64,000 bases of DNA, taken from assembly GCA_964502365.1 (NCBI GenBank), contig CAZCWQ010000001.1, forward strand, positions 8,053-72,052, read 5' to 3'. Positions within the stretch are counted from its first letter, which is position 1. Every line of letters begins with the position of its first letter. Origin of the DNA: an uncultured Desulfobacterales bacterium (lineage in GTDB: Bacteria > Desulfobacterota > Desulfobacteria > Desulfobacterales > C00003060). Under the pieces are notes generated by a model. The model did no database searches, was not told the DNA's origin, and was given only the letters and a program-made list of their open reading frames with translations. This document shows positions 21,330-56,459 of the stretch, piece after piece. The translations under genes were made by a program, and so were the position numbers.

Positions 21330-21344
21330 TACGACTTTACAATC

Positions 21345-24078: not shown

Positions 24079-24217
24079 ATTCCTACTAAACAAATATGAA
24101 ATACAAAGGGAGATATTTGATCAATGTAGCCGTTGAAAAGAACCTGGCCTGTATCTGCCAATGTTGGAGGACAGCAGGTGCTTATGGTCCTCCACGCAAT
24201 GGCGAAGAGAAGCATAA

Positions 24218-26600: not shown

Positions 26601-26626
26601 TCTAAACTGTCGTGTAACCCTATTTT

Positions 26627-26660
26627 AAGGCTGAGGGCCCATGCCCTCAGCCTTTTTTTT
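26627..26660 (+). terminator. strong rho-independent terminator after omcS-like gene
   Basis: AAGGCTGAGGGC-CCAT-GCCCTCAGCCTT forms a 12-bp perfect stem followed by T6-8. Confidence 0.85.
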
Positions 26661-26810
26661 GACGGATTGACACCTTTGTGCTTAAAGAGGACAGAAGGGC
26701 CCTGATATAACCACCCAACAGCCCAGAAAGATTGTTCATATGGCAAGTGCGTGATACATAGTGGCACCTCCATCAGAGTGGAAGTAGTCGCGTCATGTGA
26801 GGAACGGCCT

Positions 26811-28223: not shown

Positions 28224-28226
28224 CCG

Positions 28227-30401: not shown

Positions 30402-30592
30402 GTTACCGTGAAGGTCGTGACAAGTGGGCGCTCGAAACCGTCTGTGGCCGTTCCCAGACGACATCCGGTCCGTGGCAAGTGGGTTCGCAAGTTGACTGGC
30501 ATGGCCAAATGGTTTATATGGTGTTAAAAAGATAAGAGATTCACAGAAGACAAAATAGCGATACATCACCCTCTAAGGCAAGGAATTCTGCC

Positions 30593-31186
30593 ATGATTGG
30601 ATCGAAACGCGGTGTGAGTCTAATGAGATGTGTCTTGCCTTGCCTTTATCTTTCCTTGACCGCCTGTGCCGCCCCCCCTCCGCCCACCACGTATCATGAC
30701 CCGGATATGGATTTTGCGTCATTGCGCAGCGTTGCAGTCATGCCTTTTGAGAATCTCTCGCGAGACAAGCTTGCGGCGGAAAGGGTGCGAGACACCTTCA
30801 TTAACAACCTCTTGGCTACCACTTCGCTTTATGTCATCCCTCCCGGCGAGGTCGCACGGGGCAGCACAAGATTAGCGCTTGATAAGCCTGCTACGCCATC
30901 CGCGGAGGACATCTTAAAACTGGCCGTTATCATCAAGGCAGACGCTGTCATCACCGGCGTTGTCAGGGAGTACGGAGAGATAAGATCCGGGACCACATCT
31001 GCCAATGTTATATCCATCAGCGTGCAAATGTATGAGGTGCAAACGGGAACGGTGGTGTGGGCAGCATCGTCTTCGCAGGGCGGGATAAGCACATGGGATC
31101 GACTTTTTGGGGGCGGAGGCAAGCCGATGAACGATGTCACCGAAGCGGCTGTGGATGATATTATCAATAAACTCTTCAGCAAGTAA
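30593..31186 (+). CDS. CsgG/LpoB/DUF799-like lipoprotein
   Basis: Lipobox LSLTAC. SVAVMPFENLS...ADAVITGVV pattern is typical of the TolB-N/CsgG/LpoB-like fold family. Confidence 0.6.
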   Translation: MIGSKRGVSLMRCVLPCLYLSLTACAAPPPPTTYHDPDMDFASLRSVAVMPFENLSRDKLAAERVRDTFINNLLATTSLYVIPPGEVARGSTRLALDKPATPSAEDILKLAVIIKADAVITGVVREYGEIRSGTTSANVISISVQMYEVQTGTVVWAASSSQGGISTWDRLFGGGGKPMNDVTEAAVDDIINKLFSK

Positions 31187-32297
31187 ATATCTTATCACCC
31201 TTTTCACGGTTCTTATTATCCTCTGGGGTTGTGGAACGGTGAACGACCCTGTGAGAAGCGTGACGAGTGATTCCCCTGTGCATAGACCGCTCCGCGTGGC
31301 TTTTCTGCCGGTCGACAACCTTAGTGGAGGTCCTGCCCCCCTTAAGCATATCAGAGACTCCCTGTCAGACGGTTTCAAGAAACAAGGGATAACTCCCGTT
31401 GATGAGGCAGCACTTGAGAAATTTATTGCTGGGCACCGTGTCCGTTATGTAGGCGGTATGAACAGGGCCACCGCACAGGCCTTCCGAACAGAGATCTCTG
31501 CTGAAGCGGTCCTGATCACATCGCTGGAGCTCTATAGTGAGAGTGCTCCCCCCAGGATTGCTTTCACATGCAGATTGGTTTCTACGGCAGACGACACCGC
31601 AATTTTGTGGATGGATGGCATAGGGCTGGCAGGTGATGACTCTCCGGGAATTCTCGGTCTTTCTCTGATTGAAGATCCCCAGAGCCTTCTTGACGAGGCA
31701 GTGCGATACCTCGCCCTTTCTCTGTCGGCACATCTAGGAGACGGGGGCACGATGGCCACCCCCAAAAGAAGAGACAAATTTCAGCCGAAATTTTTTTACA
31801 GGTCCCCTGTGATGGCCACCGACAGACGTTACCGTGTGGCTGTCATGCCATTTTTCAATGTAAGTGAGAGAAAATACGCCGGCGAGATCATGGCCCTCCA
31901 CTTTGTCAAGGAACTCAGGCCACTCGAGAATTTTGCCGTTGTCGAGCCAGGTGTCGTAAGAGATACGCTGCTGGCACTCAGGGTCATCATGGACGATGGT
32001 CTATCCCTCGCCTACGCAGATCTCATTTTCGGCAGACTTAACGCCGATCTTATTCTTACGGGTAACGTACTGGATTATGAAGACTATCGTGGTCCCGCCG
32101 GGAAACCCAAGGTCGGTTTCTCAGCCATGCTGCTGGAGAAGAAGAGCCGGGAAGTGGTCTGGACCTGCCAGAATTATAATGAGGGGGACAACGGGGTCTT
32201 CTTCTTCGACCTAGGGAAGGTAAACACAGCCAACGCCATGGCATCCGAGATGGTACGTCTTGCCGTGGAAACAATGGCGAGGGAAGGCGGAAGGTGA
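31134..32297 (+). CDS. lipoprotein with two CsgG/LpoB/DUF799-like domains
   Basis: Lipobox ILWGC. Two copies of the same pattern (RVAFLPVDNLS... and RVAVMPFFNVS...ADLILTGNV). The start is uncertain (31134 or 31155) and overlaps the previous gene end. Confidence 0.6.
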   Translation: MSPKRLWMILSINSSASKYLITLFTVLIILWGCGTVNDPVRSVTSDSPVHRPLRVAFLPVDNLSGGPAPLKHIRDSLSDGFKKQGITPVDEAALEKFIAGHRVRYVGGMNRATAQAFRTEISAEAVLITSLELYSESAPPRIAFTCRLVSTADDTAILWMDGIGLAGDDSPGILGLSLIEDPQSLLDEAVRYLALSLSAHLGDGGTMATPKRRDKFQPKFFYRSPVMATDRRYRVAVMPFFNVSERKYAGEIMALHFVKELRPLENFAVVEPGVVRDTLLALRVIMDDGLSLAYADLIFGRLNADLILTGNVLDYEDYRGPAGKPKVGFSAMLLEKKSREVVWTCQNYNEGDNGVFFFDLGKVNTANAMASEMVRLAVETMAREGGR

Positions 32298-32306: not shown

Positions 32307-33701
32307 CTAATCCAGGCCAAATTTTTTCAATTGGTATCTGAGACTGTCATAGCTTACGCCAAGAAGTTTTGCTGCCTGCGCCTTGTTGTTCCCGGTCCTT
32401 TCTAGAGCCTGAATGATGAGGTCCTTTTCCAATTCTTCCAGAGAGATCCCCGATTCAGGTAAAACAAAACGGTCGCTCGATGGTTGGACTGCTCCCATAG
32501 TACGTCCAAACATCCAGCTCGGCATTTGTTCAGGCTCGATTATTTCATTATCTTCCAGCACCACAAACCGCTCCACCAAATTTTTCAACTCCCTTACATT
32601 CCCCGGCCAGCCGTGAGCGCTCAGGACTTGCTCAGCGGCAGGTGAAAACCCTTTGATGGTTCTTTTGTTATACTTTGTGGCAAAATAAGAGAGGAAATGC
32701 CCGGCCAGTAGGGGTATGTCTTCTTTTCTCTCTCTGAGCGGAGGGATGTGGATATAGAATGGGCTCAGTCTGAAAAACAAGGCTTTCCGAAATTCGCCTT
32801 TTTCCACTGCCTCTGAGAGGTTTCTGCTTGTGCTAGCAATGGCTGTTAGGTCTACGGGGATTTCTTTGTTTCCGCCTATTCGTCTCACTGTCCTGTTTTC
32901 TAATATCCTTAACAATTTGCTTTGAAGCCCTGGTTGCATATCGCCTATCTCATCAAGGAGTATCACTCCTCCTTTGGCCTGCTCAAACAACCCCTTTTTG
33001 TCAGATTTAGCATCTGTAAAGGCACCCTTCTCGTGACCAAAGAGTTCGCTTTCCAAAAGTGTGGCAGGCATCGCTGCGCAATTGATTGAAACAAAGGGGG
33101 CATGATGTGATGGCGTACGGCCAAACATGAGATTGTGAATATATCGGGCAACGACTTCCTTGCCTGTTCCACTTTCTCCGGTAATGAGAATGGCAGATAC
33201 GTGGGCTTTAGCGATCTTTTGCACAGTCGCCTTTATTTCATGAATGGCCCCAGATTCGCCGATAAAATCCTTTTCTATGACCTCAGCATAGGCCTTCCTG
33301 AGATAGTTTACTTCTTGCCTAAGACTTTCTTTCTCGAGGACACTGTCCAAGACAATCTTGACCTCATCAGTATTAAAAGGCTTGGTGATATAGTCCACAG
33401 CCCCGAGCTTCATGGCTTTCACTGCGGTTTCTGCAGTTTCGTCAGCTGTCAGCATGACGACCTGAGTGTCGATAGGATTTTTCCCGCTCTTAATGTCTCG
33501 CAGGATATCTATGCCGTCTCGCCCAGGAAGGCTGATATCAAGCATAACCACATCCGGATCCCATGAGCTGATTCTATCAATGACATCGTTCGGATCAGAC
33601 TCTAAGTATATTTCGTAGCCCTCTTCCTTCAGTGCCTTCGATAGGACTGTGAGAATGAGCTCATCATCATCCAAAATAAACAATTTGCCCTTGCTTTTCA
33701 T
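32307..33701 (-). CDS. sigma-54-dependent response regulator (NtrC family)
   Basis: REC domain (DISLPGRDG), an AAA+ domain with GESGTGKE and the sigma-54 contact loop GAFTDA, and a C-terminal Fis-type HTH. It has an ATGA overlap with the upstream kinase gene. Confidence 0.9.
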   Translation of the reverse strand: MKSKGKLFILDDDELILTVLSKALKEEGYEIYLESDPNDVIDRISSWDPDVVMLDISLPGRDGIDILRDIKSGKNPIDTQVVMLTADETAETAVKAMKLGAVDYITKPFNTDEVKIVLDSVLEKESLRQEVNYLRKAYAEVIEKDFIGESGAIHEIKATVQKIAKAHVSAILITGESGTGKEVVARYIHNLMFGRTPSHHAPFVSINCAAMPATLLESELFGHEKGAFTDAKSDKKGLFEQAKGGVILLDEIGDMQPGLQSKLLRILENRTVRRIGGNKEIPVDLTAIASTSRNLSEAVEKGEFRKALFFRLSPFYIHIPPLRERKEDIPLLAGHFLSYFATKYNKRTIKGFSPAAEQVLSAHGWPGNVRELKNLVERFVVLEDNEIIEPEQMPSWMFGRTMGAVQPSSDRFVLPESGISLEELEKDLIIQALERTGNNKAQAAKLLGVSYDSLRYQLKKFGLD

Positions 33702-35908
33702 GCTAGCCGTTTGCTCTTGTACTGTTCCGCCTTCAACAAAATCGTAAAAAGGGTCCCCGTGCCTGGAGTGCTTTCAACGTGTATTTGGCCGCCCTGTTGT
33801 TCGATGAGGCGTTGGGTAATGGCCAGTCCCAACCCTGTGCCTTTTGCTTTGGTAGTAAAAAAGGGCTCGAACACCTTGTCCAAGGTCTGCTTGTCCATCC
33901 CGGTGCCGGTATCAGAGATTGTGATCCTTATGAAACCCTGCTTTTCATCATAACTGGTTCTAACGGTCAGGGTTCCGCCATTGGGCATGGCCTGGATTGC
34001 GTTAAGCATCAAGTTCAAGAAAGCCTGCTTAAGTTGCATGGGGTCAGCCAGGGTTTCAGGAAGATGCTCATCAAAATCCTTAGAAATATCTATTGCCGCC
34101 GTTACATTGGATAACAGGGAGGGGTCTTTGAGGCCAAAAGAAAGGATTTTGTCAATAATGTCATTTAAATCCACGGCCATGAGCTGAGGTTTAGGGGGCC
34201 TGGCAAAATCGAGTAGACTCCTTATCAATGATTCGATACGTCCAATCTCGTCGACCGCCTTTGATGCAATGGCCCGGTCTTCCTCAGAGATATTTGGTTC
34301 CTCTCTAAGAACCTGGACTGATACCTTGATGCCTGCAAGGGGATTCTTGATTTCATGAGCCAGTCCTGCGGCCCATTCTCCGACCAATTTCATCTGTTCC
34401 GCTCTCTGCAAAGTCTCTTGTACCCTCTTGCGTTCCGTGATGTCCCGAACCACGTGAATCAGACCTGTCATCTCTTTCTTGCTGTCAAACCGAGGCATGG
34501 CCCTCACCTCGAAATATTTGTCAAAGTGGGGCTCAAAGAATTCAAAAGACGCGGGCTCCTTAGTTTTGAAGCATTCACAGGTGGGACAATTTTCCGGTGG
34601 ACAGTCCTTCCCGTGGAAATAGGCATAGCATTTTGCCTTGACCACGTCCAGAGGTGGTAGTGCCAGAAACTCCTTTGCCGCCCTGTTGGCGTGAATGATG
34701 TTGAATTCTTTGTCGTGGACAGTAATCATGTCTCGAATAGTGTCAAATGTCTCTTCCCAGTCATTCTTGGCTTGAAGGATCTCGTTTTCTATTTTTTTTC
34801 GAGCAGAGATGTCTCTGTCAATGGCTAGGATGTATTTACGACCCATATATGTCAGGAGCCCAGCACTAGCCTCAACAGGAAACACTGTGCCATCTTTTTT
34901 TCTGTGGGGGATTTCTGCCTTGATCCACTCACCGCTCAAGATACGCTTGATACGCTCTGGCGCTTCTTTTGCAGCATCAAGCGTATCTAAATCGTTTACC
35001 AAATTGAGATTGAGCAACTCCTGCATGCTATATCCATGCATTTCTGCCGCCGCAGGGTTAGCGTCCACGATGTCGCCGCGCTTTTCCCCCTCAGCCTCTG
35101 CAATAAATATGGCATCCCCGGCGCCTTCGAAAAGCAGTCTGTAACGCTTTTCGGTTTCCACAACTTTGCGGATATGCTCTTTCAGCGAAGTAGCCATGTT
35201 ATTGAACGATGCTGCTACTTCTCCAAATTCATCTTTTAGGCCTTCAATTCTATGATCAAGATCACCGGCCCTTAACTTCCGTGTCGCCCTCAGTAGCGCA
35301 CTAAGCGGTTTTGTCAGGGTCGCCATAAAGAAAAAAACAAAAACCACGGCGGCAATGGGACCCGCGATCACTAGAACATAGATCAATGTTTTTGAATCAG
35401 CCACACTCTGAAGGGCATTTTGCGTTTCATCCGCCAGCCTGAGCGCTGCTTTATGGACCATCGTGTTGACGTCTGCTATGGCCTGTTCGGCCATACTGAA
35501 GGCCTCGTTTTCTTCCTCAGCCATCCTATCACGATTTGCCCGAAGCGTGAGTACCCTGTTCAATGCATCCTTGTATAGCCCAATTTGGCTTTCCAAATCC
35601 GTTAGGCGCTTGAGTACAGTTTCAGAGTGGTGACAGTCAAAACAGGACTTTACGACGTCGTCCATGCTCTTGACATTCTTGACAATAGTGCCAAGGTCTC
35701 GCCTGTGATGCGTCCCAATTAGCGCAAGGTCAGACTGGACACTTCTGAGATTAATCAACAGATGCTCCCTGAGTATTTCCACCTGATGAAGCATGATGAG
35801 ATGATCGAGTTGAGACGTAGCGGTTTGAATGGTGGCAATGATGTAGATGCCTCCTCCCACGAAAATGATGGAAAAGGCGCCCAGTGCCAGAAGTATCTTT
35901 TTTTTCAT
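33698..35908 (-). CDS. sensor histidine kinase with periplasmic CXXCH-containing helical domain, HAMP and PAS domains
   Basis: TM1 is aa 5-25 and TM2 about aa 176-197. CFDCH at aa 89-93 (nt 35630-35644) lies between the TMs. Then HAMP, two PAS-like regions (one with CPPENCPTCEC), H-box LAHEIKNPLAGI and GTGLGLAI. Confidence 0.85.
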   Translation of the reverse strand: MKKKILLALGAFSIIFVGGGIYIIATIQTATSQLDHLIMLHQVEILREHLLINLRSVQSDLALIGTHHRRDLGTIVKNVKSMDDVVKSCFDCHHSETVLKRLTDLESQIGLYKDALNRVLTLRANRDRMAEEENEAFSMAEQAIADVNTMVHKAALRLADETQNALQSVADSKTLIYVLVIAGPIAAVVFVFFFMATLTKPLSALLRATRKLRAGDLDHRIEGLKDEFGEVAASFNNMATSLKEHIRKVVETEKRYRLLFEGAGDAIFIAEAEGEKRGDIVDANPAAAEMHGYSMQELLNLNLVNDLDTLDAAKEAPERIKRILSGEWIKAEIPHRKKDGTVFPVEASAGLLTYMGRKYILAIDRDISARKKIENEILQAKNDWEETFDTIRDMITVHDKEFNIIHANRAAKEFLALPPLDVVKAKCYAYFHGKDCPPENCPTCECFKTKEPASFEFFEPHFDKYFEVRAMPRFDSKKEMTGLIHVVRDITERKRVQETLQRAEQMKLVGEWAAGLAHEIKNPLAGIKVSVQVLREEPNISEEDRAIASKAVDEIGRIESLIRSLLDFARPPKPQLMAVDLNDIIDKILSFGLKDPSLLSNVTAAIDISKDFDEHLPETLADPMQLKQAFLNLMLNAIQAMPNGGTLTVRTSYDEKQGFIRITISDTGTGMDKQTLDKVFEPFFTTKAKGTGLGLAITQRLIEQQGGQIHVESTPGTGTLFTILLKAEQYKSKRLA

Positions 35909-37077: not shown

Positions 37078-38013
37078 ATGCAAAGACTATCGGTAGTAAC
37101 GATAACAATCATACTGTATGCCTTTAGCAACACTTTGCTATTTGCGGCCGACAACAATATCCCCGGGCTTGCAGATCTGGCAGAAGATACAAATCTTCAT
37201 TTTGACCAAAAATACTGCACGCAATGCCACGAGACGGTACCTGAAAAGGGAGTAGATACCTTGTTGAGATTTGACGGAAATCTTAGGCAGCTGTGTAGAT
37301 GTCATTACAATACGAGGGGTCGGTGTCCCCATCCGGCGGACATTCAACCCTCCCAGATCATGAAGACAAGGATCCCTGCTGATCTTCCCCTCAAAAACGG
37401 CAGGATCTGTTGTACCACATGCCACGATGTATATCTTCAGTGCCGAGACAGTGACATAGACAGGCTATTTCCGAAAGGAGACGCCTTTTTGAGAGGAGCA
37501 CCCTTTTCAAACAAGACAACACAGTGTTTTAGATGCCACGACAAAGAGCTATATGGGATGCTCAACCCTCACGACCAGTTGGACGGAAGCGGAAAGATCA
37601 TCGTCGAGCGATGTCTGTACTGCCATGTTGAAAAACCTGATGAAAAAAAGGCTGGATATAAGGATGTTAAGCTTGTCGGGGATCTTGAGATGCTATGTGT
37701 GAGATGCCATGGTCGTGTCAAGGCGAATAGGCAGTCCTTGCATGCCACTCACATTCGCAAGCCATCTGCCCAGGTCTTGGCTGGAATTGTCCAGGCTGAG
37801 AAGACATTTAAAACAACACTACCGCTGGACGCCGAAGGAAAAGTAACATGCGTAACATGTCATAATCCCCACGAAAAAGGTGTAATTCCCGCTACAAAAC
37901 CTGCGGCAAAGGGTGCTAGCGAGCCGTTCAAGCAACGCACACCGGGCAACATGTGCATCGCATGTCATGTCATGCAACAGGGAATCTCAGGCTCGAAGAT
38001 GGGTCGCAGGTGA
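37078..38013 (+). CDS. multiheme c-type cytochrome, 7 CXXCH motifs
   Basis: Signal peptide present. The motifs are CTQCH, CTTCH, CFRCH, CLYCH, CVRCH, CVTCH and CIACH, plus an odd CRCH. Confidence 0.85.
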   Translation: MQRLSVVTITIILYAFSNTLLFAADNNIPGLADLAEDTNLHFDQKYCTQCHETVPEKGVDTLLRFDGNLRQLCRCHYNTRGRCPHPADIQPSQIMKTRIPADLPLKNGRICCTTCHDVYLQCRDSDIDRLFPKGDAFLRGAPFSNKTTQCFRCHDKELYGMLNPHDQLDGSGKIIVERCLYCHVEKPDEKKAGYKDVKLVGDLEMLCVRCHGRVKANRQSLHATHIRKPSAQVLAGIVQAEKTFKTTLPLDAEGKVTCVTCHNPHEKGVIPATKPAAKGASEPFKQRTPGNMCIACHVMQQGISGSKMGRR

Positions 38014-38090
38014 AGTGCTCAGAGCCGGGTGGCCACGTTTCATGCCTATTGTTTGGAACACCCTGGTTGATACGGACATAGGGCCGCTGT

Positions 38091-38891
38091 TTACTGTTTA
38101 TTAGATTGGGTATCGCCGAATCGAAAGTCAATGACAGAGGGCAGGTAGAACGTATCGTATTTCTCTAGCATCCCAGTGACTTCTGTGGAAACCAGATGAT
38201 GAATACGATTTTCACTAAAGCCGAGTTGCGCAAAAGGGAGATAGCCCTCCTGTTTGTGACAATCAGTACAAAACACGGGCTTCTTTGATATGCCTGTGTG
38301 CAGTTCGACTTTTGCCTGAGCAACTTGATCAGCGGTATATTTGTCCTTGACTTCCAAGTATTGTTGCGCCGCTTTTTGGGTGATTGGCCTGAAAACGGTT
38401 TTTTCTCCACTGTCGGACACTGTTATTGGAAAGAGCTTGGCCGGGTATTTGCCGAATGCCCCTTTAACAGAAGAACTGACCTGCCCAGTTTCACGATCGA
38501 CCCAGGCAAAGGAAAAGTTGTTTTCCATAGAATCTTTCCTGACGTGGCAGACGGCACAAGCAATGAATCCGGTATGGAAATTCAGAAGGGACCGAACCTT
38601 TTTTTCTTTGCTATGAGGGTATGTCCCGTGACAAGTCAGACAAAGTGGCGGGTTTTGTTCAGGTTGTGTGACATAGTCGTCAACCATATGGAAATGACCG
38701 CGAGAAATGGTCCCTTTTTCTGTAAGGATTTCTCTGAAAACGTTTTCTCCTTTGGGACGTTCTGATATCCTAAAAGATTTTTTGGCAACAGCTTGGGGAA
38801 AGTAAACAACCCGAAGAAGCCAAAGGCCAAATGAGATAAAGACGACGATCAAAAGGGCTTTTATCAACTTTTTAATTCCACTAGCCATCAT
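38091..38891 (-). CDS. membrane-anchored triheme c-type cytochrome (Cbc-like operon, third gene)
   Basis: N-terminal TM helix with CLTCH, CAVCH and CTDCH. It is a paralog of the C-terminal two thirds of 41225-42169. Confidence 0.8.
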   Translation of the reverse strand: MMASGIKKLIKALLIVVFISFGLWLLRVVYFPQAVAKKSFRISERPKGENVFREILTEKGTISRGHFHMVDDYVTQPEQNPPLCLTCHGTYPHSKEKKVRSLLNFHTGFIACAVCHVRKDSMENNFSFAWVDRETGQVSSSVKGAFGKYPAKLFPITVSDSGEKTVFRPITQKAAQQYLEVKDKYTADQVAQAKVELHTGISKKPVFCTDCHKQEGYLPFAQLGFSENRIHHLVSTEVTGMLEKYDTFYLPSVIDFRFGDTQSNKQ

Positions 38892-38918
38892 TTTCAGATA
38901 TTGTTCCTATTTCCAGAA

Positions 38919-39674
38919 TCACTGGCCTTCCTGGATGATGTAAGTTTCCTGAAGTCTTGGATCAGACATGATCTTTTTATAGTGCAATGGGTGTTCTTCC
39001 TTCATAGTTTCTTCATCGATTACGCCATCTATCCAAACATTACTGAAGAGTTTGTACGGCCTCAAGTGGACTTCATACAAATGCCATATCATGATGGCCA
39101 GACAAGCCAGCACAGCTTCCATACCATGGATAATCGTGGCAAGATCGACTAAGAACCTGTTCCACAGAAATTCAGTCCACAGCATCAGACCAGTTATCGT
39201 CATGAGCGTATTGCCAAGAATAAGAGCCCCGTACTCCATCTTTTGCTTATAAGAGAAGCGGTCATATTGCGGGGGGGTTTTCTTAACACCAACGTAGAAG
39301 AGCATCGTGCTAATCATGTCTGTTAAATCCTTAGGTCTTGGGATCATATCCATGAGCCAACGACGCCCGGCCTTTTTAAACAACAGATAATAAAGATGGT
39401 ATAAACTGGTCAGCATCATAATGACGGCAGCAACCCGGTGTAAAATACCTCGATAATAGAACACAGGCTCCCGGGCTTCTCCAAGCATCTTGACTACTGT
39501 GGGTTCTGGGAGTTCCAACATGAGCCCAGTGATGGCCAGCACAATAAAACATGACACAAAGACAATGTGCTGTACTCTCTCTGCATAGGTTAGACGAACA
39601 AAATACCTTTTGGGTATACCTGAGCCCTTATCATAACTAGGAATATCTTTTAGCGTTACAACCTGTTCTGCCAT
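38919..39674 (-). CDS. membrane b-type cytochrome (FdnI/PhsC/Ni-hydrogenase cytochrome b family)
   Basis: About 5 TM helices with conserved His residues in TM helices (ERVQHIVF, LHRVAAVIM...YHLYY, IIHGMEAV...WHLYEVH). Confidence 0.75.
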   Translation of the reverse strand: MAEQVVTLKDIPSYDKGSGIPKRYFVRLTYAERVQHIVFVSCFIVLAITGLMLELPEPTVVKMLGEAREPVFYYRGILHRVAAVIMMLTSLYHLYYLLFKKAGRRWLMDMIPRPKDLTDMISTMLFYVGVKKTPPQYDRFSYKQKMEYGALILGNTLMTITGLMLWTEFLWNRFLVDLATIIHGMEAVLACLAIMIWHLYEVHLRPYKLFSNVWIDGVIDEETMKEEHPLHYKKIMSDPRLQETYIIQEGQ

Positions 39675-39702
39675 TTTAGCGGCCTTTCAAAGGAGGGGGC
39701 GA

Positions 39703-40863
39703 CTAATGCCCACTTTTGTGATTGCGTTTGGTTCGATAATAGTCCAGCATCTGGTGTAGTGACATAGATCCTATCACCAAGGCTATCAACACCTTATAAA
39801 AAAGTCTTACGAGGGTAAGTATCTTTTCCTGAAACACGTTTTTGTTGGAGATGCCGATTTCAGCTTGCCTCTTTGACTGCCAGGCTTTGTAGTTGACCTG
39901 AATGATATCTTTTCCGGCATAGGGCGCAACCGGCCCATTCATCCCAAACGCATGCTCTCTGCCAGCCACAAACTCCGCATCGGCATTGGGATGACATATC
40001 TGAACGCCTCCCTGGTGACGACAAGTATTTATTCTATTGGCAGGATTGACCGGCGAACGAGGGTCTGACGTGGTAAGGATATCATGTTTGGCATAGCCTA
40101 TGGGTACGTGACAATTCAGGCAATCCGGGGCGTTTTGAACGCCATATTTGATCTGAACCCAATGAAAGGTATCCCTGAAGGTCCCGACTGTTCTCAGGCC
40201 ATGTCGGGCCATCATTTGTGGATCTTCATGACAACTTAAACACAATTCCACGATCTCTGCCTGGCTCCTTCTCCTCCTCATACGGTGCGAAACATGCGAA
40301 TAGAATCGGTCTGCCCACTGTTGCTCCGTGTGGCAGCCAAAGCATCTGCCCAGTGCCTCATTGGCCAAAGGAGACCCCTCGCTCCACATAGTGCCACTAG
40401 GGTTGAGGATTCGATTATCGTGACAATACTTGCACGTCGGTAAGTCTTTGACATAGTTTTTGGGGCTCTTGGGTGTTCCAGTTCCGTGAGCGCTTGCTTC
40501 ATGTATCTTTAGAACCTTCAGGTGTGAGAATTGCTGTTTGCTGGACGGCTCTTCTGTGTGACATTTTGTGGCACAATCCACCTTCTTGACGTCGGTGTGA
40601 GGTATCTTGTCGAGGCCGACGTGACAGTCTTTGCATTTGAGCGTTCCATGCACCGACTCCGCAAACATCTTGTCGTTCAGATAGAATACCCTCTTGTTAC
40701 CATCTTCGTCATACCGTCCAATATGAGGATATCGGTGACACAACAGGCAATTCTCCGTGTCAGGGACCAGATCAATGGCTGCAAAGGCGACCCTAAAAGG
40801 AAGAACCAGAAAAAATACCATTATAAGAAACGCTATCACTGGTATCGAGCTGTCATTTCTCAT
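39703..40863 (-). CDS. membrane-anchored multiheme c-type cytochrome (6 CXXCH plus CX3CH), Cbc-like operon first gene
   Basis: Motifs are CLLCH, CKDCH, CKYCH, CFGCH, CLSCH and CLNCH, plus CATKCH. It has N- and C-terminal TM segments. I prefer the ATG at 40863 (MRNDSSIPVIAFLIMVFF...) over the TTG at 40944, which abuts a promoter-like site. Confidence 0.8.
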   Translation of the reverse strand: MRNDSSIPVIAFLIMVFFLVLPFRVAFAAIDLVPDTENCLLCHRYPHIGRYDEDGNKRVFYLNDKMFAESVHGTLKCKDCHVGLDKIPHTDVKKVDCATKCHTEEPSSKQQFSHLKVLKIHEASAHGTGTPKSPKNYVKDLPTCKYCHDNRILNPSGTMWSEGSPLANEALGRCFGCHTEQQWADRFYSHVSHRMRRRRSQAEIVELCLSCHEDPQMMARHGLRTVGTFRDTFHWVQIKYGVQNAPDCLNCHVPIGYAKHDILTTSDPRSPVNPANRINTCRHQGGVQICHPNADAEFVAGREHAFGMNGPVAPYAGKDIIQVNYKAWQSKRQAEIGISNKNVFQEKILTLVRLFYKVLIALVIGSMSLHQMLDYYRTKRNHKSGH

Positions 40864-40940
40864 GGATTCTATCTTTGTCCCAACTTCGCCTTTTTCCCAA
40901 GGCTGGATGGCCGAGTAATTGCTAGTAGTATCGTTTATAA

Positions 40941-40955
40941 TCAATGTCTGTGCCA
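40941..40955 (-). promoter_or_regulatory. candidate sigma-54-type promoter for the Cbc-like operon
   Basis: The reverse complement reads TGGCACAGACATTGA. The -24 box is perfect, but the -12 box is TTGA instead of TTGC. Confidence 0.4.
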
Positions 40956-41224: not shown

Positions 41225-42169
41225 ATGAAAAAGCATCTGTTGGTAAATCTCTTGACTGTTGTTTGTAGTTGTTTTTTGTACACACAAGCCCTCGTTTGCT
41301 TCGCTGCCGACGAGACTGGATGCCTAACCTGCCACAAGTACCCAGGACTTGTAAGACGCGAAAAAGATGCACTCAAGGCGCTTCATATCGATGAACAAAC
41401 CTTTCTAGGCTCTCCCCATGGCAAGCTTAACTGCAAGCAGTGCCATGCAGACATCGTTAAGGTCCCCCACACCGGTCAGAATGCCGTCCGATGCGTCACG
41501 CCTGCGTGTCATGCGAGTGATAAGGAACGCGCTGTAATCGAAAAATATCCCTTACAGACCCTCCATCAGAAGGAGCATTCTTTTATCGTTAAGTTACAGG
41601 ATCAGTCATCGTGCAGAGTATGCCACGCCCTGTATCCCCACAGCAAGAGTAATCTGGTTAGAGCGCTACTCAACATGCACACAGGCTTCATAACCTGCGA
41701 GGTGTGCCATCTCAAACGAGATGCCTTTGCCCGTGTTGCCTATCAATGGAGCGAACCTGAACACGTTGAATTCACCGGCTTGCCTTATGGGTCCCGTTAT
41801 GATCCAGAGAGAGGAATTGTCAGAACAACCGGGAATCTTATATCTCGTTTGGTTGTCTTTGTTTGGGAAAAGGGCAGGAAAACGCTGTTCGTCCATAAAC
41901 AAGATGCTGACGAGGCGAATCGATTCTTGTTGGAGGAAAAAGGGCTGAAGGACAGGGACAAAGAGACCAAGTTGGTTTTTTTTCACAGGAATATCTCGCG
42001 TAAAGAGATAACCCTTGCCTGTAAAGAATGCCATTCCCGTAAGGGCATTCTGGATTTTGGCAGCCTTGGTTTCGGCAAAAAAAAGAGTAAAGACCTCATG
42101 GACCTCGATCTCGCGGGGTTGGTCGCTAAATACGACGTTTTTTATCTCCCAGATCTTTTTGGTCATTAG
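41225..42169 (+). CDS. multiheme c-type cytochrome (5 CXXCH plus CX4CH), mosaic of the two Cbc-operon cytochrome modules
   Basis: Motifs are CLTCH, CKQCH, CRVCH, CEVCH and CKECH, plus CVTPACH. The N-terminal ~100 aa parallel the 39703 gene and the remainder parallels the 38091 gene. Confidence 0.85.
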   Translation: MKKHLLVNLLTVVCSCFLYTQALVCFAADETGCLTCHKYPGLVRREKDALKALHIDEQTFLGSPHGKLNCKQCHADIVKVPHTGQNAVRCVTPACHASDKERAVIEKYPLQTLHQKEHSFIVKLQDQSSCRVCHALYPHSKSNLVRALLNMHTGFITCEVCHLKRDAFARVAYQWSEPEHVEFTGLPYGSRYDPERGIVRTTGNLISRLVVFVWEKGRKTLFVHKQDADEANRFLLEEKGLKDRDKETKLVFFHRNISRKEITLACKECHSRKGILDFGSLGFGKKKSKDLMDLDLAGLVAKYDVFYLPDLFGH

Positions 42170-42183: not shown

Positions 42184-43170
42184 TTGAAACAGAATCTGTC
42201 GAAAAACCTTGCCCTCTTCAGAGCTACATGGGCAAATTGCTTGTCCCGCCTTTTTGTGTTGTCCTGCGTTATGCTGATGGTAATACCATTGCTCCCTGCA
42301 CATGCCGTACGGCTCGCCTATGTAAAAGGTCTTTTTGAGATTAACCATAATCTCCGAGCACCCACGGATGTCTCCGTTTCCAATCATGGCCTGATATATG
42401 TTGTAGACGGCGTACACCACGAAATCAAGATCTTCACGAGAAACGGTGAATTCCTGTCTTCTTTGGGTGGAAAGGGTTCTGGAAATGGCGAGTTTGAATC
42501 CCCTTTAGGAGTTGCAGTTGATGGCTCGGGCAGAGCCTACGTCGCCGATTCTGGAAATCACAGGGTGCAGATATTCAACCGGGATGGCAGCTTTGCCGCA
42601 TCAATTGACATTCCACCGGGCAATCTCCATCTGGCAGATCCCACAGATGTTGCTGTCAATGAGTCCACGAATACCTGTTACATCGTTGATAACGATAACC
42701 ATCGTGTCTTAGTCTATAATCTCAAGACCCTTGAATTTATGGGGAGCTTCGGAAAACCAGGGACCCAGAGGCGTGAATTCAGATATCCATTCCTTCTCGC
42801 CATAAACGCGGATGGATATCTCCATATTGTGGATGTCCTTAATACAAGGCTCCAGGTGCTCAGCCCGGAAGGTTATTTTGTTTCCGTTATTGGTAAGTGG
42901 GGCGTTGAACCGGGAGAGTTCTTCAGACCCAAGGGGGTGGCCATCGACAGGCAGGGGCGAGTTTATGTCAGTGATAGCTATATGGGGGTGATACAGGTAT
43001 TTGAGGCAGGCGGCGACTTTTGGGCCGTGATCGGTGATCCCAAAGATGAAACCGTGAAAAGATTTAGGACACCAACAGGCATATTCATCGACAATAATGA
43101 CCGACTTTATGTGGTGGAAACCTTTGCAGACAAGGTAAGCGTATACAGCTTGGGGACGGAAACCGAATAA
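42184..43170 (+). CDS. NHL-repeat beta-propeller protein
   Basis: Repeated blades (IYVVDGVHHEIKIF, AYVADSGNHRVQIF, CYIVDNDNHRVLVY, LHIVDVLNTRLQVL, VYVSDSYMGVIQVF, LYVVETFADKVSVY). The TTG start is uncertain. Confidence 0.8.
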   Translation: MKQNLSKNLALFRATWANCLSRLFVLSCVMLMVIPLLPAHAVRLAYVKGLFEINHNLRAPTDVSVSNHGLIYVVDGVHHEIKIFTRNGEFLSSLGGKGSGNGEFESPLGVAVDGSGRAYVADSGNHRVQIFNRDGSFAASIDIPPGNLHLADPTDVAVNESTNTCYIVDNDNHRVLVYNLKTLEFMGSFGKPGTQRREFRYPFLLAINADGYLHIVDVLNTRLQVLSPEGYFVSVIGKWGVEPGEFFRPKGVAIDRQGRVYVSDSYMGVIQVFEAGGDFWAVIGDPKDETVKRFRTPTGIFIDNNDRLYVVETFADKVSVYSLGTETE

Positions 43171-43179: not shown

Positions 43180-45678
43180 TTGCCTTTGGAGCAAAGCGAA
43201 ACTCCTTTGAATCAAGTGAGATCTTACTGTGGCGTGAAGCAGGCGATTTGCCTCGGATTGTTATTCGCCTCCGTGCTATTCCAATTGCAGGTTTCCCACG
43301 CACAAGATGAAGCGTTGAGGAACCCTCGATCTGCAAAAGAGTGCGCCATATGCCACTATCGCTGGATCGATACGTTCTTTATCGATGGAAAAGGTTCCGA
43401 GCTGGTCCCGTACCAGTCGGAAAAGGTTGTGGCCACTCCTGATATGTGTTTTTCATGCCATGATGGCAGCGTGCTGGATTCGAGGGTAAGGGTGTACAAT
43501 GATTACGGACACAAGACGAACAAGCCACCGCCTTCTCATGTCAAGGTGCCCAAAACCTTCCCCTTGGATGAAAAGGGAAATGTGCAGTGTGCTACGTGCC
43601 ATACACCGCATGGTGTTCCGAGCGGGCCAACCGCCCAGGAAAGTATCTTCTTGAGAACTTCGAACAAAAACTCAGCCATGTGCCGGATGTGTCATGCTGA
43701 TGTGGACGGAGGGATAGATACAGGGAATCATCCCATCGGCGAGATGAAACAAGTTATTCCTGGAAGCCTTGTTTCCCTTGGCAGTGCCGTGGGGACAAGT
43801 GGTCGTCTAATCATTTGTGAGACATGCCACACAGCGCACGGCTCGCCTTACGAGAACCTTTTGATTAAGAGCGGCAGGGATTCCGGGCTGTGTGTCGAAT
43901 GTCACCGGGAAAAAGACAATAGAATCTCCCATGGAAAGAAAAAGCCGTTTCACCTGGTCAATGTCGTACCCAGGAGAGTCATAGTGCCCGAGAAGCTCAT
44001 TGAGAGGGGAGCAAGATTGGGTCGTGAGAGAAAAATCATCTGCCAGTCCTGTCATAAGGTGCATCATAATAAAATCAAACAGAGACTGTTGATCGTCAGA
44101 CAGGACATGCACTCCAGCCTATGTCTTACTTGTCACACAGAGAAGAAATACATTTTGGATACAAAACATAATCTCATCCATTCCGCACCACGAGAAAAGA
44201 ATCTCCAGGCAAAGACCGTAAGAGAGAAGGGCGTGTGCTCGGCCTGTCACTTGCCTCACAAACCGGCTCGGAGAGTAGATGAGGACCGGGATTTCGCTTC
44301 AGGGCTCTGTTTGAGCTGTCACAGCAAAGGACATGTGGGCGAGAATCCTCTGCTTGATGGGTATTCTCATCCTTTGAATGTAAGACCAAGCAGTAAAAAA
44401 CACGTAAATACCTTAGCTGGTGCACAAAGCATTCGGTCATCAGGACCGATGCTTCCTCTTTTTGCGGAATTTGGCATTCAGGACAAAACCGGGAAGCTTG
44501 CTTGCCCAACGTGTCATGACGCTCACAGATGGCAGGCGAACTCAACGGTGGGAGAAACAAGAAAAGGTGTGAAAGGAAATCGGATGACATCGTTTCTGCG
44601 GAGTCCATCGCCAGAGATTTGCCAGGACTGCCACAGCGAGAAGTTCTTTGTTGTAGACTCGGGACATGATCTGAGGAAGGTTGCTCCTTTGGAGAGGAAC
44701 ATTTTCGATCAGACGCCGTCGAAATCGGGTCTCTGTGGAAGCTGTCATCTTGTGCATGGGGGACAGAAAGATTTCTTGTGGGCGAGGGAAATTACTTCCA
44801 TGGGTGGGAGTATCGTGCAAGATTTGTGTTCGAGCTGCCACAACAAAAAGGGCATGGCAAAAGATAATGTGATAAAGGGGTATTCTCATCCTCTAAACAT
44901 CCTACCTTCGGAAAAAGACATCAAGACCACGCTTCCCCTTTTTGATGAAAACGACAGAATTCGTGAAAATGGTGTGATGCGATGCCACACGTGCCACGAT
45001 ACGCATGGTTCGCTTCCATCAGCATCAGGCAATGACCGCGTCGATGTTGTCAAGAACTCAAAAAACAGGTTTCTGAGATTGGAATATACACCATCTCCCA
45101 GGCTCTGCGAAGATTGCCACAGCAAGAAAGCGTACATTGAGAGGACCGAGCATGACCTGACTGTGACAGCGCCTTTGTCAAAAAATGAAATAGACAAACT
45201 ACCTTCTCAATCAGGCATATGCGGAGTCTGCCATGCTGTACACGGCAGCAAAAACAAGACAAGACTTTGGGCGCAGGCCTTTGGGACGGGTAACAACATC
45301 ATGGAAAGGATGTGCAATTCTTGTCATTCAGAAATAGGGTCAGCAAGAGACAAGATACCACGAATCGCGTCTCATCCAGATGTGCTCATTAACAACCTTG
45401 GACGAAACGCTAAAGGAAGCCTCCATTTTTTCCCACTGTTTCACAAAAGATCTGGGGAAATGGTGGAAGTTGGCAATATCTCATGTCCCTCGTGCCATGA
45501 CGGGCATATCTGGGATCCGCAGTCTCGCGCTAAGGGGAAAGGAAAAAGACTGGAGGGAGATGCGACCAACAGCTTTCTGAGGGGTAGAGCTCGCGATCTG
45601 CCCTGCAAGAACTGTCACGGCCCTGACGGACTGTTTAAGTTGCTTTATTTCCATGAACCTGGAAAACGGGCAAGCTAG
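43180..45678 (+). CDS. giant multiheme c-type cytochrome, 20 CXXCH motifs
   Basis: I counted 20 CXXCH motifs in about 830 aa, with a hydrophobic signal-like segment. The start codon is uncertain (TTG 43180 or a downstream GTG). Confidence 0.85.
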   Translation: MPLEQSETPLNQVRSYCGVKQAICLGLLFASVLFQLQVSHAQDEALRNPRSAKECAICHYRWIDTFFIDGKGSELVPYQSEKVVATPDMCFSCHDGSVLDSRVRVYNDYGHKTNKPPPSHVKVPKTFPLDEKGNVQCATCHTPHGVPSGPTAQESIFLRTSNKNSAMCRMCHADVDGGIDTGNHPIGEMKQVIPGSLVSLGSAVGTSGRLIICETCHTAHGSPYENLLIKSGRDSGLCVECHREKDNRISHGKKKPFHLVNVVPRRVIVPEKLIERGARLGRERKIICQSCHKVHHNKIKQRLLIVRQDMHSSLCLTCHTEKKYILDTKHNLIHSAPREKNLQAKTVREKGVCSACHLPHKPARRVDEDRDFASGLCLSCHSKGHVGENPLLDGYSHPLNVRPSSKKHVNTLAGAQSIRSSGPMLPLFAEFGIQDKTGKLACPTCHDAHRWQANSTVGETRKGVKGNRMTSFLRSPSPEICQDCHSEKFFVVDSGHDLRKVAPLERNIFDQTPSKSGLCGSCHLVHGGQKDFLWAREITSMGGSIVQDLCSSCHNKKGMAKDNVIKGYSHPLNILPSEKDIKTTLPLFDENDRIRENGVMRCHTCHDTHGSLPSASGNDRVDVVKNSKNRFLRLEYTPSPRLCEDCHSKKAYIERTEHDLTVTAPLSKNEIDKLPSQSGICGVCHAVHGSKNKTRLWAQAFGTGNNIMERMCNSCHSEIGSARDKIPRIASHPDVLINNLGRNAKGSLHFFPLFHKRSGEMVEVGNISCPSCHDGHIWDPQSRAKGKGKRLEGDATNSFLRGRARDLPCKNCHGPDGLFKLLYFHEPGKRAS

Positions 45679-46059: not shown

Positions 46060-47196
46060 ATGAAGAACAGGCTGGAAGCGATACTCATAACCATACTTGC
46101 TTTGACGGGAAACCTCGCCCTTCAAGTGCTGCCGGGTCCTGCCCACGCCTTCCATGAAGGGGGTGTTGGGTACTGCGAAGGCTGTCATGTTTTGAATGAA
46201 TCGCCAGAAGACCAGACTCCCACCGGCCCACAGCTTCGAGGCTCAGATCCGAGCTCAACTTGTCTGCGTTGTCATGCAGATGAAGGCAAGTTCTTCAACG
46301 TGATGAGTCAAGACGGGTCATCGTATACCCCGGGGGGTGACTTCTATTGGTTGACAAAAACTTTCCTGTGGAGTGTCAATGGAAGGTCTTACCGAAGCCC
46401 CGGCAACAATCACGGCCACAATGTCGTTGCTGCTGATTACGGCTTGGCTCCGGACCAGATACGGGGCTCGGCTCCCGGTGGCATATACCCTTCAACTGCG
46501 ATGGGTTGTAACAGCTGTCACAACCCCCATGCAATGACATCGACTTCTGGCTTTTACGAGGAAGACCCTCCCCCGGGAACAGAGGTGGGCAACTTCAGGC
46601 TTCTTGGCGGAACCAATTACCGCGCTGGTGACCGAGTTAACGGTATGGTTTTTTCATATCCATCCCCCGTGGCTGTGGCCAACGTAAATGACTGGATTGA
46701 GACCGACTTCAACCACACCGCCTATGGTTCAGGAATGTCCGATTGGTGTGGTAATTGCCACACCGGCATTCTCAATGAGGGCAACAAGCACCCGTGTGGG
46801 AAAATCGCGGGACTTAGCGCCACCATCATTTCCAATTACAACGCCTACATGGCCACAGGCCTTCTAGGCGGATTTCAAACAACATCCTATTTGTCATTAG
46901 TCCCTTTCGAGGTTGGGACAACGGCAGAGTATCTCCTTGACCCATCCAGCACGTCTGGGCCCGAAGGAACGGCCAATGTCATGTGTCTGACTTGTCACAG
47001 GGCCCATGCCTCGGCCTTTCAGGATATTGGGAGATGGGATTTTCAATCTACATTCATCGCTAATTCGCATCCCAAACCAGGTGACGGCGGCATAACCGGT
47101 AATGACGTACTCAACAGCTATTACGGCAGGAATATGATTGCAGAGTTTGGCAGCTTCCAAAGACAGCTTTGCAATAAATGTCACCTGCAAGATTAG
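46060..47196 (+). CDS. OmcS-family hexaheme cytochrome, second paralog
   Basis: ATG 46060, signal ...AHA|FHEGGVGYCEGCHVLN, six CXXCH motifs. It shares the same conserved blocks as 25416-26600 and ends CNKCHLQD. Confidence 0.85.
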   Translation: MKNRLEAILITILALTGNLALQVLPGPAHAFHEGGVGYCEGCHVLNESPEDQTPTGPQLRGSDPSSTCLRCHADEGKFFNVMSQDGSSYTPGGDFYWLTKTFLWSVNGRSYRSPGNNHGHNVVAADYGLAPDQIRGSAPGGIYPSTAMGCNSCHNPHAMTSTSGFYEEDPPPGTEVGNFRLLGGTNYRAGDRVNGMVFSYPSPVAVANVNDWIETDFNHTAYGSGMSDWCGNCHTGILNEGNKHPCGKIAGLSATIISNYNAYMATGLLGGFQTTSYLSLVPFEVGTTAEYLLDPSSTSGPEGTANVMCLTCHRAHASAFQDIGRWDFQSTFIANSHPKPGDGGITGNDVLNSYYGRNMIAEFGSFQRQLCNKCHLQD

Positions 47197-53123: not shown

Positions 53124-53573
53124 ATGACTGCGCCTGATCATGTGACAATATCGCAACAGCCCGATGTGGCCACTCAACTGAGAGAATCACTTAAGAACAT
53201 TGGCGGACTTCTCCATTATTTGCCTGAAAACGAACAAAAAACCCTCCTCCAGTTGTTAGAAGACTGGCAAAACCCTGAACGAAGAAGGCTTCAAAGGAAA
53301 CTTTACTCCCTCCCCGTAGATTTTGCTGTAGGAAATCGGGCCTTCAGCGGTTTTGTTCGAGATATCAATGGAAGGGGGGTGCACATCGAACCTTCTGGAC
53401 GTTTCCATGTCGGTCAGGCAATCACGCTTAGCTTTCCTTTTCCCGGCCTGTCAAAGCCTATAAAGACACAAGGAGAGATTGTATGGACTGACAAGCATGG
53501 GTTTGGAGTAAAGCTGGCAATGCCAAACAAGTATCTAGAAGAATACGTCCAGAAGAAATTAGAACAGCTCTAG
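53124..53573 (+). CDS. PilZ domain protein
   Basis: RBS AAGGAGAG. It carries RRRLQR (RxxxR) and DINGRG (D/NxSxxG-like) c-di-GMP-binding-type motifs at the right spacing. Confidence 0.65.
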   Translation: MTAPDHVTISQQPDVATQLRESLKNIGGLLHYLPENEQKTLLQLLEDWQNPERRRLQRKLYSLPVDFAVGNRAFSGFVRDINGRGVHIEPSGRFHVGQAITLSFPFPGLSKPIKTQGEIVWTDKHGFGVKLAMPNKYLEEYVQKKLEQL

Positions 53574-55375: not shown

Positions 55376-55446
55376 GAATTGTCTCTTTGCATGCCTCAGA
55401 CAGTCTTATTGACTCTGTCATACGTGAGTATTTAGGGAGAACCGAT

Positions 55447-56100
55447 TTGGCGAAGGTTACGGTCTTTGTTTTGTGGTTTCTTTTATGGAGCAGTCCAACA
55501 GCAGCAGGTTCGTCCGAACAACCGGCATCGGCCAAATCCGTTAGTATTCTTCCAAACTCATCTGAGTCGAAAGAAATCGAGCGACCATCCGTTGAAATGA
55601 ACTTCCAGGATGTCGACATCCGTGATTTCGTGAGCTACGTCAGTAAGGTAACGAGAACGAATTTTATCCTTGGTCCCAATGTTAAGGGACGCGTCACAAT
55701 AGTCTCGGCCACAAAGGTCCCCGTGGATGAGGTTTTCAGCTTTTTTCAGTCGGTTCTTGAGGTTCACGGATACACGACCGTGGAGGCTGGAAGCGTGGTG
55801 AAGATCGTTCCGTCAGCAACGGCTCGGGGCAAGAGCGTTGAAACAGGGTTCAGAGAGGAATTAAGAACCGCAGGAGACAAGTTTGTTACGCAAGTGATCC
55901 ACCTCAACCATCTCGGCCTAGACGACACGAAAAGCCTGTTGACTCCCCTTGTATCCGAAAACAGTGTTATCGTCTCTCACCACCGATCAGGGATGCTGAT
56001 TATCACAGATTCCCTTTCAAACATTCAACGGTTACAACAGATCATAAAGGCCATTGATGTGCCAAAGGCTCTAGAAGAGATCTCGGTCGTTGGGGAATGA
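55447..56100 (+). CDS. secretin N-terminal domains only (GspD-like N0+N1, no secretin barrel)
   Basis: TTG 55447 lies 7 nt after GGGAGA. It has a signal peptide, an N0-like block (VEMNFQDVDIRDFVSYVSKVTRTNFIL...) and an N1 block (TQVIHLNHLGLDDTKSLLTPL...IITDSLSNIQRLQQIIKAID), then stops. Confidence 0.6.
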   Translation: MAKVTVFVLWFLLWSSPTAAGSSEQPASAKSVSILPNSSESKEIERPSVEMNFQDVDIRDFVSYVSKVTRTNFILGPNVKGRVTIVSATKVPVDEVFSFFQSVLEVHGYTTVEAGSVVKIVPSATARGKSVETGFREELRTAGDKFVTQVIHLNHLGLDDTKSLLTPLVSENSVIVSHHRSGMLIITDSLSNIQRLQQIIKAIDVPKALEEISVVGE

Positions 56101-56165
56101 GGACACCGCAACGCTCGCGAACGAGAGGGGAAATTCCACGTTTCCGTGACATATGGGTGCATGAA

Positions 56166-56459
56166 ATGACAATTAGAGTAAGATCCTTTGCTGTCCTTCT
56201 TCTCACGGCTTGCCTATTGTGTCTTGCTCCGCTCGCTGTCCATGGTCAGCACGTGCGGCCACTAAGAGAACCAATAGTGATCAAAGTAATCCGCCTAGAT
56301 TACGCTGATGCAGAGCAGCTTGCCTCTGTTTTAAGTCCTCTGCTGACAAGAGATGGCCGGATGGTGGCCTATTCGCCCACCAATACCCTTATCATTAGAG
56401 ACAGGAAATCCCTTGTTGAGCAATTGGTCAGAGTAATAAAAGGGGTGAGTGATTCCTAA
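56166..56459 (+). CDS. small secreted protein with one secretin-N (N1-type) domain
   Basis: Signal peptide, then IKVIRLDYADAEQLASVLSPLL...NTLIIRDRKSLVEQLVRVIKG. The start is uncertain (56097 or 56166). Confidence 0.55.
   Translation: MTIRVRSFAVLLLTACLLCLAPLAVHGQHVRPLREPIVIKVIRLDYADAEQLASVLSPLLTRDGRMVAYSPTNTLIIRDRKSLVEQLVRVIKGVSDS

Follow-up and report, generated by a model that had tools for sequence, protein, structure and literature searches.

The closest described relative of the protein considered here is OmcS of Geobacter sulfurreducens (GSU2504; Protein Data Bank (PDB) entries 6EF8 and 6NEF), the subunit of a cytochrome nanowire. The axial heme ligands of OmcS are all histidines, 12 in number, of which 11 are supplied in cis and one in trans, the latter on the fifth heme (Filman et al. 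preprint), and the residue that binds heme 5 of the neighbouring subunit is His16 (PMC13319180). Here we describe an OmcS-family gene, referred to as paralog 2, which encodes Asn at this position. It lies at 46060-47196 of a 64,000-nucleotide stretch of DNA, the window, from an uncultured Desulfobacterales bacterium (GenBank assembly GCA_964502365.1, contig CAZCWQ010000001.1, positions 8,053 to 72,052 of the forward strand), in which a further OmcS-family gene, paralog 1, has His at position 16.

Several other systems frame the comparison. In G. sulfurreducens, the GSU2501-GSU2493 block has been linked to the folding, secretion and morphology of OmcS nanowires by Shen et al. 2025, as quoted in PMC13194489 and PMC12977616, and we use the osc (omcS-companion) gene names of that study in the form in which these two papers quote them. 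OmcZ, which is unrelated to paralog 2 in sequence and fold and not homologous to it, has eight hemes, is processed by a protease and assembles into filaments without inter-subunit heme coordination. The published idea closest to the one developed below is the hypothetical OmcE stopper Dsoud_2415 (bioRxiv 10.1101/2025.10.22.684050), likewise a paralog with an altered His that is fit only for a filament end. It differs from paralog 2 in that it would occupy the opposite end, has an extra cis His that fills the open heme and has an unrelated tetraheme fold, and it is itself speculative. Telling true nanowire subunits from their paralogs by sequence is described as an unresolved problem in a 2026 analysis of Geobacter OmcS paralogs, which proceeds without the ligand His as a criterion (PMC12977616).

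An earlier note on this DNA had reported, at the position of paralog 2, an open reading frame (ORF) with six CXXCH motifs and the motifs PGGDFYWL, APGGIYP, CNSCHNPH, FRLLGG, SGMSDWCGNCH, CLTCHRAHAS and CNKCHLQD, and all of these are found on translation. The features of the gene, with residues numbered as in the mature protein, are the following.

46060-47196, plus strand: paralog 2, OmcS-family hexaheme cytochrome of satellite clade A; intact ORF, 378-amino-acid precursor
46060-46149, plus strand: predicted Sec signal peptide of 30 amino acids (...PGPAHA/FHEGG); precursor residue F31 is residue 1 of the 6EF8 chain
46174-46188, plus strand: heme 1 motif CEGCH (C9-H13), invariant in the OmcS family
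46195-46197, plus strand: codon AAT for Asn16, at the position of OmcS His16 (inter-subunit axial ligand of heme 5'); from the ungapped 6EF8 alignment and the DNA itself
46261-46275, plus strand: heme 2 motif (CXXCH)
46507-46521, plus strand: heme 3 motif (CXXCH)
46747-46761, plus strand: heme 4 motif (CXXCH)
46984-46998, plus strand: heme 5 motif CLTCH, acceptor of the trans ligand (its proximal His is OmcS His332), retained
47170-47184, plus strand: heme 6 motif (CXXCH)

The reading frame could be extended 5' to a TTG at 46024; the ATG at 46060 yields a normal signal peptide, MKNRLEAILITILALTGNLALQVLPGPAHA followed by FHEGG, without a lipobox Cys. The A-x-A/FH.GG junction is common to paralog 2 and its homologues, and the mature sequence after AHA reads FHEGGVGYCEGCHVLNES. 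In a phmmer search of all PDB chains, OmcS was the sole match of paralog 2 (E 2.7e-62), with residues 31-378 of the precursor aligned to residues 1-407 of the OmcS chain and the first 18 mature residues aligned without a gap. In this alignment Asn stands where OmcS and paralog 1 have His, as the earlier note had stated, and the codon AAT is separated from the His codon CAT by a single A/C difference. The role of His16 as an inter-subunit heme ligand, as given in that note, is borne out by the two sources cited above and by a count of histidines: when OmcS, the two paralogs and 240 homologues are aligned, exactly 11 His are invariant (H2, 13, 51, 110, 144, 147, 243, 257, 332, 335 and 404 in OmcS), which with His16 as the twelfth agrees with the published count of 11 cis ligands and one trans ligand.

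The suspicion that the ligand position is empty was also correct. Between His13 and the second heme motif (Cys38), the mature sequence of paralog 2 is free of His, Met, Lys and Cys, so that no nearby residue can replace His16. Its donor arm reads CEGCHVLNES and does not match the conserved motif C-x-x-C-H-[TS]-M-H-N-S. The same Asn is present in the nearest relative (L110/P0004), which comes from a different sample and shares 89.5% nucleotide identity, and this rules out a sequencing error as its source. Paralog 2 is unable to supply an axial His to heme 5 of a neighbouring subunit. Three extra histidines, H88, H189 and H307 (46411-46413, 46714-46716 and 47068-47070), at positions that do not ligate heme in OmcS, were considered as compensators and rejected, as they are 94-100% conserved in clade A whether or not His16 is present. 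The first His of HGHN, H88, is shared by 100% of the arm-shortened group described below but by only 35% of clade B, and OmcS has Lys there. The reverse distribution is seen at OmcS H63, a position occupied by His in 91% of clade B and in no member of clade A. When the frequencies of His, Met, Lys, Cys and Tyr were compared column by column between members with and without His16, no correlate of the loss emerged, and among the aligned members there appears to be no compensating His or Met column that could provide heme 5 with a sixth ligand in cis.

The rest of the protein is well preserved. Paralog 2 has all 11 same-subunit axial His, including the five distal ligands outside the motifs (OmcS H2, H110, H147, H257 and H335), and the 10-mer CLTCHRAHAS at heme 5 is identical in paralogs 1 and 2. 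It departs from the consensus at none of the 106 columns with at least 95% conservation in clade A, which indicates that the gene is not decaying; a pseudogene status of paralog 2 itself was rejected on this ground and because the protein is full length. By its homology, paralog 2 is predicted to adopt the three-dimensional fold of OmcS. An AlphaFold2 (AF2) model from an alignment of 37 sequences (mean predicted local distance difference test score 38, predicted template-modelling score 0.24) was too poor for use.

Within the OmcS family, which comprises 281 clusters at E <=1e-30, His16 is invariant in the neighbourhoods of OmcS and paralog 1. It is present in 120/120 nearest homologues of paralog 1, in all 116 of the 120 nearest homologues of OmcS that have a complete N-terminus, and in 94 of 100 representatives of 50%-identity clusters gathered with a mixed profile and having a complete N-terminus; 99 of these 100 representatives have all 11 other ligands. 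A neighbour-joining tree places the paralog-2-type clade A apart from the paralog-1-type clade B, with OmcS between them. Among the 112 nearest full-length homologues of paralog 2, which make up clade A, 78 have His16, and the other 34 have R, L, N, Q, D, S, Y, V or G. Parsimony requires at least 21 changes between His and non-His at position 16, all of them within clade A, in which loss of the donor His is thus a repeated event. Only about 5 of the 34 losses are to Asn. This disposes of an Asn-type subfamily, which the earlier note had proposed to look for by multiple alignment, and the varied replacements also argue against its idea of polymerisation through a different ligand as a general rule; no column gains His, Met, Lys, Cys or Tyr when His16 is lost. 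The surroundings of position 16 follow the same division: the CH[TS]MHNS motif is tight in clades B and S (entropy <=1.2 bits), and in clade A positions 14, 15 and 17 are variable (2-3.4 bits) even where His16 remains. The members without His16 are otherwise no worse preserved than those with it, with 1.56 versus 1.73 deviations from conserved columns (p 0.96), and every His16-less protein examined retains heme 5 together with all 11 cis His.

The loss of His16 is tied to gene location. Paralog 1 occupies what we call the osc slot, the position between the NHL-like gene and the OscD-like propeller of an osc cluster:

25416-26600, plus strand: paralog 1, OmcS-family hexaheme cytochrome with His16, clade B, in the osc slot
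16986-32297, both strands: complete osc-type (omcS-companion) assembly cluster in two divergent halves (Pfam)

Paralog 2 is not in the slot; it is found about 14 kb past the end of the osc cluster and 20 kb from paralog 1. A scan of one genome per species, in which the best relative has only 56% identity, gave 80 loci from Nitrospirota, Desulfobacterota, Geobacterales, Acidobacteriota, Myxococcota and other phyla. OmcS-like genes in the slot have His16 in 70 cases and lack it in one, and those outside the slot have it in 20 cases and lack it in 12 (Fisher p 1.5e-6, not corrected for phylogeny). The sole exception in the slot, from a metagenome-assembled genome of the Geopsychrobacteraceae (L006 9977-11161), reads CHNGGH, with His at position 18, and adjoins a normal His16 copy. 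Donor loss recurs specifically in OmcS-family copies outside the osc slot.

A further satellite group, clade C, has a shortened arm. It consists of 12 proteins of Geobacterales, Nitrospirota and Desulfobulbales (L017, L022, L023, L024, L030, L035, L038, L045, L049, L060, L064 and L071, including those of Geomobilimonas luticola (L060) and Geobacter sp. AOG1 (L071)), which are encoded outside the slot and of which none has His16. In most of them the loop from heme 1 to heme 2 is shortened; six CXXCH motifs and the 11 other ligands are present in all, and two have a seventh CXXCH. Wherever this could be assessed, copies lacking His16 share their genome with an osc cluster and with copies bearing His16. 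This is so in the window, in Geobacter sp. AOG1 (L033 and L071), in Geobacter clean984 (L045 and L051), in Geobacterales Co_metawrap_1265 (L035 and L069), in Deferrisomatales B4G8CH4-07 (L002 and L032), at L112, where an Arg16 copy directly follows OscH-I-J-K, and at L030, L064 and L049. In the Deferrisomatales genome GCA_033551855.1, two clade A genes in tandem, the first with Asn16 and the second with His16, lie directly 3' of a glycosyltransferase cluster (L002 9938-12483), and three His16 copies are present in the osc slot (L032). The Asn16 member of this pair (P0120) and the clade C proteins are, like paralog 2, donor-less satellites with six CXXCH motifs and 11 cis His, encoded off the slot in osc-bearing genomes; other satellites differ from paralog 2 in having R, L, Q, D, S, P, T, K or E, or a loop deletion, at the donor site. 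At another locus, in the Nitrospirota genome MFD00008.bin.1.129 (L061 1970-11695), six tandem OmcS-like genes fill the osc slot, all with His16, an extreme case of expansion in the slot.

Compared with OmcS, then, paralog 2 shares full-length homology, six colinear CXXCH motifs, the 11 cis His, a Sec signal peptide and the mature FH.GG start, and differs in the Asn that stands for His16, in its gene location off the slot and in belonging to a clade without the conserved T-M-H-N-S. OscC (GSU2501) and the other slot cytochromes, including paralog 1, are of the same family, and slot copies have His16 in 70 of 71 cases. Paralog 2 is an OmcS-family member that lacks three marks of a nanowire subunit, namely His16, the donor-arm motif and the location in the osc slot.

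The osc cluster of the window matches the GSU2501-GSU2493 block. According to Pfam, its minus strand encodes an NHL propeller, a 16-heme cytochrome, a 26-heme cytochrome and a SurA-type peptidyl-prolyl isomerase (PPIase), and its plus strand an NHL-like protein, paralog 1, a YncE-like propeller, a 724-amino-acid outer-membrane protein, a lipoprotein and a 387-amino-acid protein. The expected osc order is present, that is NHL-like, OmcS-like, OscD propeller, OscE, OscF, OscG, OscH PPIase, the multiheme OscI/OscJ and OscK NHL, and it was found again in about 45 of the 80 loci, in at least six phyla. Paralog 1 has FHDGGVAHCDGCHSMH, reads CHSMH with His16 present, and matches OmcS at E 8e-63. Its identity to paralog 2 is 41%, which indicates that the two are old paralogs. 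A sigma-54-like site with one mismatch, TGGCATGTAGATTGCT, lies at 24063-24078, 140 nucleotides 5' of the first plus-strand osc gene; across the window this pattern occurs at chance level, with 34 sites found against 38 expected. Genes for a sigma-54 activator and a PAS/HAMP histidine kinase directly follow the cluster (32307-35908).

Paralog 2 itself is preceded by three genes for redox or propeller proteins:

41225-42169, plus strand: 5/6-heme c7/c3-like cytochrome, first gene of the neighbourhood (CXXCH count, Pfam)
42184-43170, plus strand: NHL-repeat beta-propeller (Pfam NHL, E 4e-31; 24% identity to the OscK-like NHL protein)
43180-45678, plus strand: 20-heme cytochrome (20 CXXCH; Pfam Paired_CXXCH_1 and MtrC/MtrF II-IV domains)

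A gap of 381 nucleotides separates the 20-heme cytochrome from paralog 2. The earlier note had seen a separate module in the series cytochrome, NHL, 20-heme cytochrome and OmcS-like protein; the order is real in the window, but the arrangement is not conserved. We did not find the 20-heme/NHL module beside close clade A relatives, which are mostly solitary genes in unrelated surroundings, so that the module does not appear to be a conserved unit. Some clade A genes adjoin the OscK end of an osc cluster (L035, L064, L087 and L112). A recent duplication of OscI/J/K was rejected as the origin of the neighbourhood, since the large cytochrome and the NHL protein show no more than 21-24% identity to the corresponding osc proteins (21-24% for the 20-heme cytochrome and the 26-heme OscI-like protein) and the small cytochrome gave no significant match. 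Around paralog 2 there was no convincing sigma-70 or terminator site and upstream of it no sigma-54 consensus, and a search with Rfam yielded no RNA element in the whole window.

The interval that separates the osc cluster from the paralog 2 neighbourhood contains a Cbc-like inner-membrane module (37078-40944), in which 3-heme, 6/7-heme and 7-heme c-type cytochromes flank a cytochrome b561-type protein (38919-39674). At four otherwise unrelated loci, small genes for PilZ-domain proteins, which bind cyclic di-GMP, are located within a few kb of clade A OmcS-like genes (window 53124-53573; L111 6075-6617; L114 4317-4736, 8140-8559 and 9053-9574; L116 16118-16420), and this may be due to chance. 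The window contains only short ORFs at 48-55 kb. At 55387-56459, a GspD-like N0 domain and a Secretin_N domain are split over two short overlapping ORFs without the secretin C-domain, and a gene for a DUF4382 protein comes next. At 3345-9255 there is a CusCBA-like heavy-metal efflux operon of the resistance-nodulation-division type, which encodes an outer-membrane factor, a HlyD/CusB protein with heavy-metal-binding domains and an AcrB-type pump.

With a rough probability of 0.4, we propose that paralog 2 is a donor-dead but acceptor-competent, non-propagating subunit, and that it partners a donor-competent paralog, for instance paralog 1, as an end subunit or adaptor. In an OmcS-type filament, His16 of subunit i would bind heme 5 of subunit i-1, and a subunit without His16 would receive a ligand and give none; a chain of donor-less subunits only would leave every heme 5 without a sixth ligand. 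We infer that paralog 2 cannot propagate a canonical His-bridged OmcS-type homopolymer and, judging from its sequence, it probably extends no wire by itself. Its heme-5/6 face could receive His16 from a donor-competent subunit, for example paralog 1. Paralog 2 would then sit at a filament end with a free heme-1 face, either as a cap or as a cell-proximal adaptor, and its heme 1 might pass electrons to other cytochromes or take them up, the adjacent 20-heme protein being one candidate. The conservation of His16 in the slot copies and in both filament-type clades suggests that this mode of assembly depends on the bridge. As 70% of clade A keeps His16 despite pairwise identities of about 55-60%, the clade seems still to use inter-subunit bridging, and this would favour a partner role over a purely monomeric one. 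That paralog 2 is functionally divergent in assembly is supported in direction, though not proven.

Several points weigh against an end or adaptor role. Filaments have been shown only for OmcS of G. sulfurreducens (PMC12977616). Relaxation of the donor arm extends to the whole of clade A, and identity between the two paralogs is only 41%, so that the arm of paralog 1 may not fit the heme-5 pocket of paralog 2. Clade A genes are mostly solitary, whereas one might expect the gene for a dedicated end subunit to lie close to the assembly machinery, and the Fisher test of the association with the slot is uncorrected for phylogeny. Finally, the copy of the gene in the nearest relative, L110 (2198-3103 on a contig of 3456 bp, European Nucleotide Archive ERZ23486228), is damaged: codon 22, in the signal peptide, is TAA in place of CAA, the conserved residues H118, W212 and E284 are lost, and the sequence after codon 294 is unrelated. 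The ratio of nonsynonymous to synonymous substitution rates (dN/dS), computed codon by codon, is 0.30 between paralog 2 and this copy, compared with 0.14 for the upstream gene. The L110 copy may be a pseudogene or may reflect an assembly artefact or chimeric contig; it serves as a warning that the Asn16 lineage may be dispensable.

The main alternative, which is quite possible, is that paralog 2 is a stand-alone, non-filamentous relay cytochrome, acting as a monomer or with partners other than OmcS-type proteins, such as the 20-heme cytochrome and the NHL protein that it adjoins in the window. Heme 5 would in that case be five-coordinate or water-bound, and the protein would act as a soluble or surface relay, or perhaps offer a site for ligand binding or catalysis; one heme with open coordination is common in multiheme enzymes. 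An encoded position outside the assembly cluster fits such a relay, as does a donor arm that is relaxed throughout clade A and deleted outright in the further satellite group, and the functions of the OmcS paralogs, of which only OmcS itself is known to polymerise, are described as unknown (PMC12977616). However, the His16 kept by 70% of clade A would be useless in a monomer, because the geometry of the filament structure suggests that it cannot reach heme 5 of its own subunit. The association with the 20-heme and NHL genes is not conserved in close relatives, and clade A has no specific new residue that would tune an active site.

Paralog 2 could also polymerise with itself through the large interface and the stacked heme 1/6' pair, with heme 5 left five-coordinate or weakly ligated by Asn16. 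His/Asn ligation of heme is known in Rhodobacter SHP, OmcZ shows that filaments can form with no coordination between subunits, the OmcS interface is indeed large (about 1,900 Å2, a figure taken as quoted), and every other conserved family position is intact in paralog 2. Such a homopolymer nevertheless seems improbable to us. His16 is retained in the slot copies and in both filament-type clades, and the residues that replace it in relatives, among them Leu, Gly, Pro and Val, argue against a substitute ligand; these and Arg would be unable to ligate iron, no common alternative ligand is apparent, and Asn represents a small share of the losses. We regard it as more improbable still that position 16 has merely drifted in a redundant, dispensable paralog that is heading for loss. 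Such drift would explain the stop codon, the lost residues and the broken 3' part of the L110 copy as well as its elevated dN/dS, and OmcS-like genes are often gained and lost (PMC12977616). Paralog 2 is, however, full length, with an intact signal peptide, six CXXCH motifs, 11 cis His and 0 of 106 conserved columns changed, the His16-less members as a class are not more degenerate, and L110 is a short metagenomic contig, perhaps chimeric or erroneous.

Beyond the single gene, one might speculate that the OmcS family consists of two kinds of genes, slot-encoded filament subunits with His16 and donor-less satellites that act as dedicated end subunits of nanowires, a generalisation that we consider doubtful. 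If it were true, the satellites would be either a cap or a base near the cell through which the wire connects to other multiheme cytochromes, a counterpart of the minor pilins, and His16 status together with slot position would make a simple sequence rule to predict which OmcS homologues polymerise. The His16 pattern may already have been noted by Shen et al. 2025. Taken together, a single paralog without the donor His is modest news, and the family-wide His16 rule is the more useful result: with the 11 cis ligands invariant and the trans ligand lost mainly off the slot, it offers a concrete and testable discriminator of nanowire subunits, and donor-dead paralogs such as the one described here could terminate, anchor or feed cytochrome wires.

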